NCBI RefSeq assembly: GCF_003019035.1
Contig: NZ_CP027447.1
Length of the DNA stretch: 64,000 bases
Source of the DNA: Escherichia coli
GTDB taxonomy: Bacteria > Pseudomonadota > Gammaproteobacteria > Enterobacterales > Enterobacteriaceae
Strand: one strand, 5' to 3'
The notes beneath the pieces were generated by a model. The model saw only the letters and a program-made list of their open reading frames with translations. It searched no databases and had not been told where the DNA came from. Of the stretch, positions 63,221 through 63,677 are shown piece after piece. Both the position numbers and the translations under genes were made by a program. Within the stretch, counting starts at the first letter, position 1. Each line of letters starts with the position of its first letter.

Positions 63221-63677
63221 GAAAACCCAGTCCTTGCAAAGATGAAGTCGAAATGCGCGATGACACACTACTGAAAGCGGAAGGACGAGTAAAGTTGCAA
63301 TTAAAAGGAAATGTTATGCATCAGAGGGGGATTTTTAATTCTATATTAGTGTTTAGCATTGTTGCGCTCCTTTCATGTGCAATGCCATATAAAGCCACTG
63401 GCGCAGGGAGCGCGCAGGGGGCGGCCAGTCGCCGCCGCCCCCTGCACCCCCGGGCTCTGGCGAACAAAATCGCCGCTGCGCGGTACCTTCAGCTTATCCC
63501 CTTCGGCTACCGGGTCGGGCGCGAGGTAACGTCCCTGTAAGACGCGCCCTCAGCCCACATCCATGTGGGCTGCCCCGGCCTTCGGGGAACGCTTCAGCGA
63601 TTTTGACGCCACCAACACCCGTGCGGTTTGTAACGTCGAAGATAAAACAACCAGGGCAGATAAAATGCCAATGCTAA

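Follow-up and report, generated by a model that had tools for sequence, protein, structure and literature searches.

Introduction

TRIP1 is an Escherichia coli repeat that was described by Rudd in 1999 and renamed RRS ("replication risk sequence") by Pham et al. in 2023 and 2024 (PMC10287960, PMC11194060); TRIP1a and RRS-lysO are one element (PMC10888264, PMC11194060). In K-12, the G-rich strand of the element contains a G-quadruplex (G4) motif and dense hairpins that block DNA polymerases (PMC11194060), and when this strand serves as template for lagging-strand synthesis the replisome leaves a gap of up to ~2 kb, onto which SSB and RecA are loaded (Pham et al.). The two K-12 RRS copies bracket the terminus region, each lying ~650 kb from dif on its own side. 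Loss of both copies alters genome-wide supercoiling, and at least one copy has been published as conditionally essential. An engineered 'double inverted RRS' strain is viable and displays no strong RecA/SSB peak at the element; in vitro, the inverted RRS gives lower-frequency gaps, which are caused by the C-rich strand. RRS copies are also a known recombination substrate that leads to large inversions around the terminus. Both orientations of the element are on record, with 1255 reverse and 3448 forward copies counted by Li et al. 2024 (Genes).

Other described systems share features with TRIP1. REP/BIME elements are likewise GC-rich intergenic palindromes, often located just past a stop codon, and BIME-2, a gyrase site, also has a link to chromosome topology; TRIP1 differs from them in unit size, copy number, consensus sequence and fold, and has been set apart from BIMEs and other repeat classes in the literature (Rudd 1999; Pham et al., PMC10287960, PMC11194060). 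TwoAYGGAY (Rfam RF01731; Weinberg et al. 2010) is a multi-copy RNA motif that is found in Gammaproteobacteria, is not tied to 5' UTRs and has been proposed to bind CsrA (PMC4333381), the protein for which a SELEX consensus, RUACARGGAUGU, is available (PMC4347634). Here we compare an intergenic segment of E. coli FDAARGOS_497 with these systems.

Results

The window, by which we mean the whole 64-kb stretch of FDAARGOS_497 DNA analyzed, contains a spacer at 63221-63677 between lysO (62321-63220, minus strand) and the stop codon of aqpZ (63678-63680). Base composition confirmed the original prediction of a GC-rich segment between AT-rich flanks, with 64-74% GC in 100-nt windows across 63350-63600 compared with 35-45% in 63250-63400 and 63600-63750. 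The three strong inverted repeats that had been described were all present. Repeat 1 (GCAGGGGGCGGC / GCCGCCCCCTGC, 63414-63425 and 63434-63445) has 12-nt arms that are 100% complementary and separated by 8 nt, and forms a perfect 12-bp GC hairpin; repeat 2 (CAGCCCACAT / ATGTGGGCTG, 63551-63560 and 63563-63572) includes the CCCACATCCATGTGGG noted originally; and repeat 3 is CCCCGGCCTTCGGGG (63573-63587). A tandem 11-mer (GCGCAGGGAGC / GCGCAGGGGGC) was also identified at 63401-63423; one unit of it is absent in strain 2A.

Pairwise BLAST against K-12 revealed collinear flanks on both sides (63102-63324, 97.3% identity; 63675-63800, 94.4% identity). Between these flanks the whole stretch was unlike K-12, with a 350-bp allele-specific cassette (63325-63674) in place of a 387-bp K-12 cassette. 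Within this cassette, a 275-bp core (63359-63633, G-rich 'sense' strand on the minus strand) aligned to the K-12 lysO-aqpZ copy only after reverse-complementing, with 91.6% identity over 275 bp. The core also matched the K-12 dusC-yohP copy (91.9% identity), and its ends matched the putP-efeU copy, which is internally deleted in K-12; these are exactly the three TRIP1 loci of that strain. Further E. coli copies were found at copA-ybaP, the TRIP1e locus. The core occurred at 1-10 places per genome in 5425/5426 complete E. coli genomes and is a repeated intergenic element rather than a unique spacer, and the lysO-aqpZ copy was present in about 94% of complete genomes. The window copy was closer to the full-length putP-efeU copy (94-95%) and to inverted dusC copies (~94%) than to the K-12 lysO copy.

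The minus strand carries, at 63432-63451, the only exact match in the 64-kb window to the published K-12 RRS G4 motif (GGGGGTGCAGGGGGCGGCGG); this motif overlaps the 12-bp hairpin and occurs on one strand only. The position of the core between lysO (ybjE) and aqpZ is that of TRIP1a, and the published position, length, 62-65% GC and copy number agree with the segment. Locus, core length, G4 motif, GC content, hairpins and paralogous loci are therefore shared with K-12 TRIP1a/RRS-lysO, while the window copy differs in being inverted, in its diverged cassette sub-flanks and in the absence of the K-12 aqpZ terminator hairpin. Taken together, these data make it highly probable that the segment is the lysO-aqpZ copy of E. 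coli TRIP1 (TRIP1a = RRS-lysO), the published replication-gap element, here in inverted orientation. No contradiction to this identity was found. Type I toxin-antitoxin repeats, Sib/Ldr, hok/sok, IS remnants and omega/bridge RNAs were dropped as candidates once the loci and the literature had given TRIP1.

We also examined the open reading frames that overlap the element, and these are not genes. The 95-aa ORF on the plus strand (63253-63540) had been judged non-coding, and our analysis agreed: it has no Pfam match, it starts outside the repeat, and in K-12 the reading frame from this ATG ends after 5 codons. The signal-peptide-like beginning of the ORF (MHQRGIFNSILVFSIVALLSC) arises in the window allele only. 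A 48-aa ORF on the minus strand was likewise rejected as a protein-coding gene, having no Pfam match. The sense strand carries near its 3' end the motif AAAGGAG (63369-63375, minus strand), which is either Shine-Dalgarno-like or a further GGA site; among full-length enterobacterial copies, only the two most divergent lack it in the form A(A/G)GGAGCGCAAC. Each locus has different short ORFs downstream of this motif, and thus no conserved peptide is encoded.

The plus strand had positive GC skew across most of the window, and this, together with synteny with K-12, identifies it as the leading strand, so that the leading-strand template carries the G4. In FDAARGOS_497 the dusC region had negative GC skew, and the G4 strand of the dusC-yohP copy was plus compared with minus for the dusC copy of K-12. 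Both FDAARGOS_497 copies (lysO and dusC-yohP) are thus inverted relative to K-12, and neither has the K-12 arrangement, in which the G4 strand is the lagging-strand template. Among the complete E. coli genomes, the window-type lysO allele was found in 1047/5426 (~19%) and the K-12-type allele in 4030/5426 (74%), consistent with the counts of Li et al. 2024; in at least 19% of complete genomes, the leading-strand template carries the G4 of the lysO copy. [quoted passage not shown]

Orientation at lysO and dusC was examined individually in six genomes. Both loci were read directly in four of these, and were both inverted in FDAARGOS_497 and E69 and both canonical in K-12 and SCPM-O-B-8794; in Z247 and JJ1887, the orientation at one or both loci was deduced from search results. 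As in FDAARGOS_497, both RRS copies of E69 put the G4 on the leading-strand template, and its inverted dusC copy has a core of the canonical type. For O157:H7, the copy shown to be inverted is the one at lysO. A macro-inversion between two copies was rejected as the source of the in-situ flip, as it cannot turn an element relative to its own flanks. The window strain would be predicted to behave like the engineered 'double inverted RRS' strain. Any role of the window copy in gap formation and RecA/SSB loading would be extrapolated from the published K-12 experiments, and 8.4% of positions differ between the window allele and the K-12 copy.

To assess the claim that the segment is highly structured, both strands of a 306-nt segment were folded. 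The minus strand gave -150.3 kcal/mol (z = -4.75) and the plus strand -134.4 kcal/mol (z = -3.99), and 0/100 dinucleotide shuffles were as stable for either strand, which bears out the claim. Comparison of 17 enterobacterial copies revealed that repeats 1 and 2 are hairpins kept throughout; the stem of repeat 2 is invariant, and that of repeat 1 has compensatory changes, including a joint C-G to A-U change at columns 211/226 and 214/223 in the Z247 and FDAARGOS_497 dusC copies. Repeat 3 probably does not form a hairpin of its own: the comparative fold predicts that its halves pair with distant partners, columns 55-59 with 144-148 (covarying from UA to CG) and columns 66-69 with 131-134. Across the enterobacterial alignment, 10 pairs had compensatory changes and 98% of cells were paired, a level reached by 0/500 shuffles.

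The folds also revealed a domain on the minus strand (63467-63606) that resembles TwoAYGGAY. A long closing P1 stem, seen in both the minimum-energy and the alignment folds, surrounds an inner stem and two adjacent GGA-loop hairpins separated by AG, and the domain stems covary at columns 47/157, 50/154, 51/153, 56/147 and 59/144; the minimum-energy fold reproduces this architecture. Hairpin 1 (63551-63572) has the loop region ACAUGGAUGU (63557-63566), and hairpin 2 (63517-63549) has the loop region ACAGGGACGU (63529-63538), giving the element the GGA loops ACAUGGAUGU and ACAGGGAYGU. Loop 1 (AUGGAU) fits AYGGAY, and loop 2 is AGGGAC (AGGGAU in K-12, AAGGAC in Z247), with a purine at the Y position. 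In addition to these two near-consensus loop sites there are two weaker GGA sites, GGGAUAAG and AAAGGAG. TRIP1 further differs from TwoAYGGAY in having an extra 3' domain, consisting of the G-rich 12-bp hairpin and a AAAGGAGCGC tail, which lies outside the Rfam model.

This resemblance raises the possibility that the element is also, or mainly, a structured RNA related to TwoAYGGAY, the transcribed G-rich strand of which would titrate CsrA or regulate a neighbouring mRNA via CsrA; we regard this as a tentative proposal. In such a case the two near-consensus hairpin loops, with the further GGA sites, would be offered to a CsrA dimer, and the transcript in this allele would be the aqpZ 3' UTR or the lysO leader, because the sense strand is co-directional with both genes and the K-12 aqpZ terminator hairpin is absent. 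A structured RNA at the 3' end of aqpZ, one of the original suggestions, may thus exist. RF01731 aligned to the element along the entire model (positions 1-168), scoring 27.6 bits (E = 0.078), and other E. coli copies aligned end-to-end at 28.4-30.6 bits; RF01731 was the only match with E < 1, but all of these scores are below its gathering score of 43. No curated Rfam family reached its threshold, and the other matches were chance ones of the GC hairpin to miRNA models.

The loops themselves are close to the CsrA consensus. ACANGGAYGT has two matches in the 64-kb window, both in the element, on one strand and 28 nt apart, and the loops match the SELEX consensus at 9-11/12 positions with ACA and GGA intact (hairpin 2, 10/12 in the window copy and 11/12 in K-12). 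The element shares with CsrB/CsrC/RsmZ-type RNAs the presence of GGA in hairpin loops that match this consensus, and the spacing of its two sites would let one CsrA dimer bridge both. CsrC and CsrB contain roughly 9-22 GGA sites, compared with only 2 strong and about 2 weaker sites here; moreover, no BarA/UvrY-type promoter is evident at the element, and any binding of CsrA is putative. A consensus scan found no sigma-70 promoter, and promoter and terminator scans of both alleles gave no candidates; these scans are a weak test, as they also miss the evident K-12 aqpZ terminator hairpin with its 9-nt loop. The orientation of the sense strand relative to neighbouring genes is inconsistent across loci and alleles and is antisense to both genes at K-12 lysO, and a literature search returned no report of a transcript or of CsrA binding for TRIP1/RRS loci.

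The two-loop pattern was next considered beyond E. coli. It was found at at least 120 loci in Gammaproteobacteria and Lachnospiraceae, compared with ~9 expected by our own rough estimate. The Lachnospiraceae matches are bona fide TwoAYGGAY (75-108 bits), one Salinicola copy scored above threshold (44.8 bits), and in Pseudocitrobacter 84 nt separate a TRIP1 copy from a bona fide TwoAYGGAY core (49.2 bits). A MAFFT alignment of the wider family recovered only the loop-proximal stems, so stems were counted per sequence instead. This wider set displayed massive stem covariation around fixed loops, although TRIP1's own loops served as the seed of the search, which makes the loop conservation among its matches circular. 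The hairpin 1 stem, invariant in Enterobacteria, has at least 36 sequences in other taxa with an identical loop. An nhmmer profile of 17 TRIP1 copies gave only weak matches to the non-enterobacterial copies, in the two-hairpin core (best E = 0.0066); such a sequence-only profile finds almost nothing outside the loops, and convergence on two GGA hairpins is possible. On the sense strand of hairpin 2, G.U outnumbered A.C by 16 to 1, a bias repeated in the enterobacterial alignment; in contrast, hairpin 1 had no strand bias (10 G.U versus 11 A.C), and strand-specific folding is equally expected of single-stranded DNA on a replication template.

An origin as a selfish, non-autonomous mobile repeat (MITE-like) or its relic, independently inserted or flipped and with replication effects that are structural side effects and not a selected function, appears rather unlikely. 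TRIP1 is multi-copy, with 1-10 copies per genome at variable, lineage-specific loci, and both orientations are found at two loci. The inverted dusC copy of E69, with its canonical-type core, implies repeated flips or gene conversion. Pseudomonas citronellolis has over 50 near-identical copies of the related motif, there in a ~400-bp unit with inverted ends (CCAGAGA...TCTCTGG), and the K-12 cassette ends form an imperfect 8-bp inverted repeat (GCATAAGG / CCTTCTGC). For a MITE, the inverted ends of the K-12 cassette are short and imperfect, and both orientations at one locus could also stem from local inversion. Against mobility, no transposase, clear target-site duplication or empty site was found in E. 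coli, the lysO-aqpZ copy is retained in most complete genomes, and conditional essentiality has been published for K-12. The element of E69 is also 98.5% identical to that of the window, compared with 92-95% in aqpZ, lysO and hcp; such conservation above that of the flanking genes, between divergent lineages, points to constraint or to a recent transfer of the allele.

A REP/BIME cluster was suggested by the original prediction, and the segment is indeed GC-rich, palindromic, intergenic, repeated and at a gene 3' end. This reading is effectively refuted and retains only a negligible probability, since the element has a complex multi-helix fold and a unit of 275 bp compared with 35-40 bp for REP units, occurs in 1-10 copies per genome and not hundreds, is classed apart from BIMEs in the literature, and gave no match to a REP consensus (a weak test, as the pattern matched nothing in the entire window). 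The refuting condition named originally, an identical K-12 sequence annotated as REP, does not hold: the K-12 counterpart is in the opposite orientation and 91.6% identical, and NC_000913.3 has no annotated feature at this place.

Discussion

The lysO-aqpZ segment is not a new element but one already described, and its variation in orientation is likewise on record. The resemblance of half of TRIP1a/RRS-lysO to TwoAYGGAY and its two near-CsrA-consensus hairpins may be new, as they are absent from the cited RRS and TRIP1 papers. The compensatory stem changes, together with loops conserved far beyond Enterobacteria, suggest selection on something other than the G4; in the elements beyond Enterobacteria no G-rich 12-bp hairpin was seen, as read in Salinicola only. 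We speculate that RRS/TRIP1 could be the enterobacterial branch of TwoAYGGAY, which would then be a multi-copy family with strand-specific folding in Gammaproteobacteria and Lachnospiraceae; this possibility is to be held with considerable doubt. In that event the invariant feature would be the paired CsrA-consensus GGA hairpins and not the G4, the function or origin would lie in RNA (CsrA binding) or in mobile-element biology, and the gap phenotype would be a consequence of structure.

The natural double inversion, present in this genome and at least one other (E69), means that to either side of the terminus the leading-strand template carries the G4, and is possibly useful to specialists. 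Natural strains with both G4s in this position would support the view that the gap phenotype of RRS/TRIP1 is a consequence of structure. If the link to TwoAYGGAY is real, it would tie an orphan RNA motif of 2010 to an E. coli element with a measurable phenotype, and both would become easier to study.

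Identity of the lysO-aqpZ element

The 3' end of the window carries hcp (60526-62211), lysO (62321-63220) and the 3' part of aqpZ (stop codon 63678-63680), all on the minus strand, and the intergenic region between lysO and aqpZ spans 63221-63677. Analysis in 100-nt windows revealed a GC content of 0.64-0.74 over 63350-63600 compared with 0.35-0.45 in the flanks. Both strands of a 306-nt segment folded far better than dinucleotide shuffles, with energies of -150.3 kcal/mol for the minus strand (z = -4.75) and -134.4 kcal/mol for the plus strand (z = -3.99). The region contains a perfect 12-nt inverted pair (63414-63425/63434-63445), a 10-nt inverted pair (63551-63560/63563-63572) and the inverted repeat CCCCGGCCTTCGGGG (63573-63587), and all three inverted repeats quoted in the original prediction were found. 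The GC-rich, structured segment described there is thus confirmed as a real and striking feature.

The core of this segment (63359-63633) is a repeat: 5425 of the 5426 complete E. coli genomes searched carry it, with 1-10 places per genome (median 3-4). Individual matches that were fetched lay at lysO-aqpZ, dusC-yohP, putP-efeU and copA-ybaP. K-12 MG1655 has three copies, at lysO-aqpZ, dusC-yohP and putP-efeU (the last internally deleted), and the NC_000913.3 annotation has no feature at any of them. The presence of three copies in K-12 pointed to the 'TRIP' nomenclature of Rudd 1999, which the literature bears out: the element corresponds to TRIP1, whose copies are lettered a to e (Li et al. 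2024, PMC10888264). The copies at lysO and dusC have also been named 'Replication Risk Sequences', RRS-lysO and RRS-dusC, respectively (PMC10287960, PMC11194060, a 2026 preprint). The window contains one exact match to the published RRS G-quadruplex (G4) sequence GGGGGTGCAGGGGGCGGCGG, on the minus strand at 63432-63451. The segment is therefore the known TRIP1a/RRS-lysO, in its rarer, previously reported orientation.

Two other readings were rejected. Open reading frames of 95 aa (plus strand) and 48 aa (minus strand) had no Pfam match, and the peptides that follow a conserved AAAGGAG differ at every locus; the 95-aa frame, already thought non-coding, has its start outside the repeat and does not survive in the K-12 allele. 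None of these frames is a gene. The proposed REP/BIME cluster fails on the 275-bp unit, the multi-helix fold and the handful of copies, and RRS were explicitly distinguished from BIMEs by their authors (PMC11194060). A REP consensus search of the window, a weak test, gave no match.

Resemblance to the TwoAYGGAY RNA motif

An Rfam scan of 62900-64000 gave one match with E < 1, TwoAYGGAY (RF01731), at 63467-63606 on the minus strand (27.6 bits, E = 0.078, whole model aligned). Copies from K-12, DA33137, Z247 and Pseudocitrobacter scored 28.4-30.6 bits at the same position, all of these scores lying below the gathering score of 43. As in TwoAYGGAY, two hairpins with an AG between them are enclosed by an inner stem and a long closing stem. 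Their loops, ACAUGGAUGU (63557-63566) and ACAGGGACGU (63529-63538), both on the minus strand, are the only occurrences of ACANGGAYGT in the 64-kb window. Of the 12 positions of the CsrA SELEX consensus RUACARGGAUGU (PMC4347634), 9-11 are matched by these loops, including the invariant ACA and GGA, and CsrA binding has been proposed for TwoAYGGAY (PMC4333381). We found no mention of Rfam, TwoAYGGAY or CsrA in the RRS/TRIP1 papers examined, and the resemblance may be new.

A degenerate two-loop pattern with free stems was searched in one genome per species. It matched at least 120 loci compared with about 9 expected by our estimate, although the pattern derives from TRIP1 itself, which makes loop conservation among its matches circular. 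The taxa include Escherichia, Pseudocitrobacter, Salinicola, Shewanella, Acinetobacter, Marinobacter, Alcanivorax and Lachnospiraceae; the Lachnospiraceae matches are bona fide TwoAYGGAY (75-108 bits), and one Salinicola copy exceeds the threshold (44.8 bits). The stems beside the fixed loops vary, with at least 36 distinct sequences for hairpin 1 and 28 for hairpin 2, and extend on average over 5.45 and 2.97 pairs, respectively, compared with 1.2-1.3 for shuffled flanks, and many copies have closing stems of 20-35 bp. The closest outside relatives, from Salinicola, share with TRIP1 the inner stem and the lower hairpin-2 stem (CCGGGGC...GAGGCGCG...CGCCGACCCG), and the 3' tails are alike (AAAGGGGAGCGCGAGG against AAAGGAGCGCAAC). 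A sequence-only profile search found little beyond the two-hairpin core.

In a 17-sequence alignment, the enterobacterial consensus fold comprises 77 pairs with 98% of cells paired. Ten pairs have compensatory changes, a value reached by none of 500 shuffles and compared with 0-4 in slid controls. Counts of G.U versus A.C pairs in the stems of the two-loop matches showed a clear strand bias in hairpin 2 (16 to 1) and none in hairpin 1 (10 to 11). Folding of single-stranded DNA would give an identical signature.

Several other arrangements were observed. In Pseudocitrobacter faecalis, one locus (L029) holds a bona fide TwoAYGGAY core (2218-2281, plus strand, 49.2 bits, E = 6.8e-7) with a TRIP1-type copy 84 nt away on the other strand (1868-2135, minus), so that canonical and TRIP1-type elements lie side by side in an enterobacterium. 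Pseudomonas citronellolis LMG 18378 (L077-L129) carries the two-hairpin motif in more than 50 near-identical copies, many at contig ends, and strain GW210018_S65 (L046-L053) has copies too; each lies within a repeat unit of about 300-400 bp with inverted ends (CCAGAGA...TCTCTGG), mostly beside REP-like sequences, and the unit looks like a MITE. In an uncultured Thalassotalea sp. (L024, L025) the two GGA hairpins are repeated in tandem, head to tail, about every 51 nt, unlike the single enclosed pair found elsewhere.

A relationship between the element and TwoAYGGAY is probable on these data. The structured-RNA suggestion of the original prediction thereby gains an unexpected lead; we consider a function at the RNA level rather unlikely. 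A consensus scan of both alleles found no promoter in the element, a literature search returned no report of a transcript or of CsrA binding for these loci, and the orientation of the element relative to neighbouring genes varies between loci.

Inversion of the element and relationships among copies

Alignment with K-12 revealed collinear flanks at 63102-63324 (97.3%) and 63675-63800 (94.4%); the middle aligns only as the reverse complement, and direct alignment fails there. A 350-bp cassette (63325-63674) stands where K-12 has 387 bp, and the 275-bp core matches the K-12 core in reverse complement, with an identity of only 91.6%. When the sequences were read side by side, the K-12 aqpZ terminator hairpin (AAGGCCTGGCGTAATGTCAGGCC then a T run on the gene strand; 2785-2852 of the K-12 locus, L001) was missing from the window allele, so aqpZ transcription may continue into the element and towards lysO. 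After the aqpZ stop (63634-63677) there is only a weak GGCA/TGCC hairpin and then a T-rich stretch. The variable cassettes adjoin short palindromes, ATGCAT on the lysO side (63325) and TTAATTAA at the aqpZ stop codon (63675), the latter also found at the yohP-side edge of the K-12 dusC cassette (L009 3069-3086); these could be a target site, a recombination site or a coincidence.

The window-type arrangement occurs in 1047 complete E. coli genomes (19%) and the K-12 type in 4030 (74%), in line with the counts of 1255 reverse and 3448 forward by Li et al. (PMC10888264). The orientation polymorphism is thus already published, but without discussion by replication strand. K-12 and SCPM-O-B-8794 are canonical at lysO and dusC, as is E. 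albertii at the sole locus checked in that species, lysO. Both copies are inverted in E. coli E69, as in the window genome. Z247 has an inverted dusC copy and lacks a window-type lysO allele. JJ1887 also lacks this allele, and its best match to the window element (93.8%) is a typical Z247-type dusC value; judged by sequence type, its dusC copy is probably inverted. Mixed-orientation genotypes therefore appear to exist.

The window copy is 98.3-98.8% identical to the E69 lysO copy (L055 3864-4161 versus 63345-63650), whereas identity to the window falls to 92-95% in the aqpZ, lysO and hcp genes of E69, which suggests either stronger constraint on the element or recent allele exchange between divergent lineages. 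Identity is 95.0% with a full-length putP-efeU copy, 94.6% each with the inverted Z247 dusC copy and the W05E18 copA-ybaP copy, and 91-92.5% with canonical lysO copies; the E69 dusC copy is inverted, yet its core is canonical-type. These values point to gene conversion between copies and more than one flip.

In strain 2A (L132, lysO-aqpZ), a window-type allele has lost about 120 bp between two short direct repeats, CCCCGG, along with one unit of the tandem 11-mer (relative to window 63416-63426 and 63453-63572). The 120-bp deletion takes out both GGA hairpins and one closing-stem arm and leaves the G-rich hairpin in place. An internal deletion of the same kind is found in the K-12 putP-efeU copy (TRIP1b), and the two look like recurrent slippage at the structure.

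Orientation relative to replication

GC skew is positive on the plus strand across most of the window, and gene order and orientation are those of the K-12 right replichore. The plus strand is thus the leading strand, and the G4 (minus) strand is the leading-strand template; K-12 has the opposite arrangement, with the G4 strand as lagging-strand template (PMC11194060). The window is 100% identical to FDAARGOS_497, the source genome. At the dusC-yohP locus of that genome GC skew is negative on the plus strand, and this strand carries the G4; in K-12 the G4 of the dusC copy is on the minus strand. Both RRS copies are therefore inverted in FDAARGOS_497; they are still inverted relative to each other, with G4 on the leading-strand template in both.

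Published work on K-12 has shown that Pol I, II and IV are blocked in vitro at the G4 site of the G-rich strand, which also slows Pol III in vivo (PMC11194060). The two K-12 RRS copies lie about 650 kb on each side of dif, at least one is conditionally essential, and double deletion alters global supercoiling; strains with engineered inversions are viable and no longer show the RecA/SSB peak, and in single-molecule assays of the inverted orientation lagging-strand gaps persist at lower frequency, attributed to the C-rich strand (PMC10287960, PMC11194060, 2026 preprint). TRIP1 copies also mediate large chromosomal inversions (PMC10888264). The window element is predicted to trigger gaps in attenuated form, in the manner of the engineered double-inverted strain. 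The inverted state of the lysO copy in about one-fifth of complete genomes argues against a strict requirement for G4 on the lagging-strand template.
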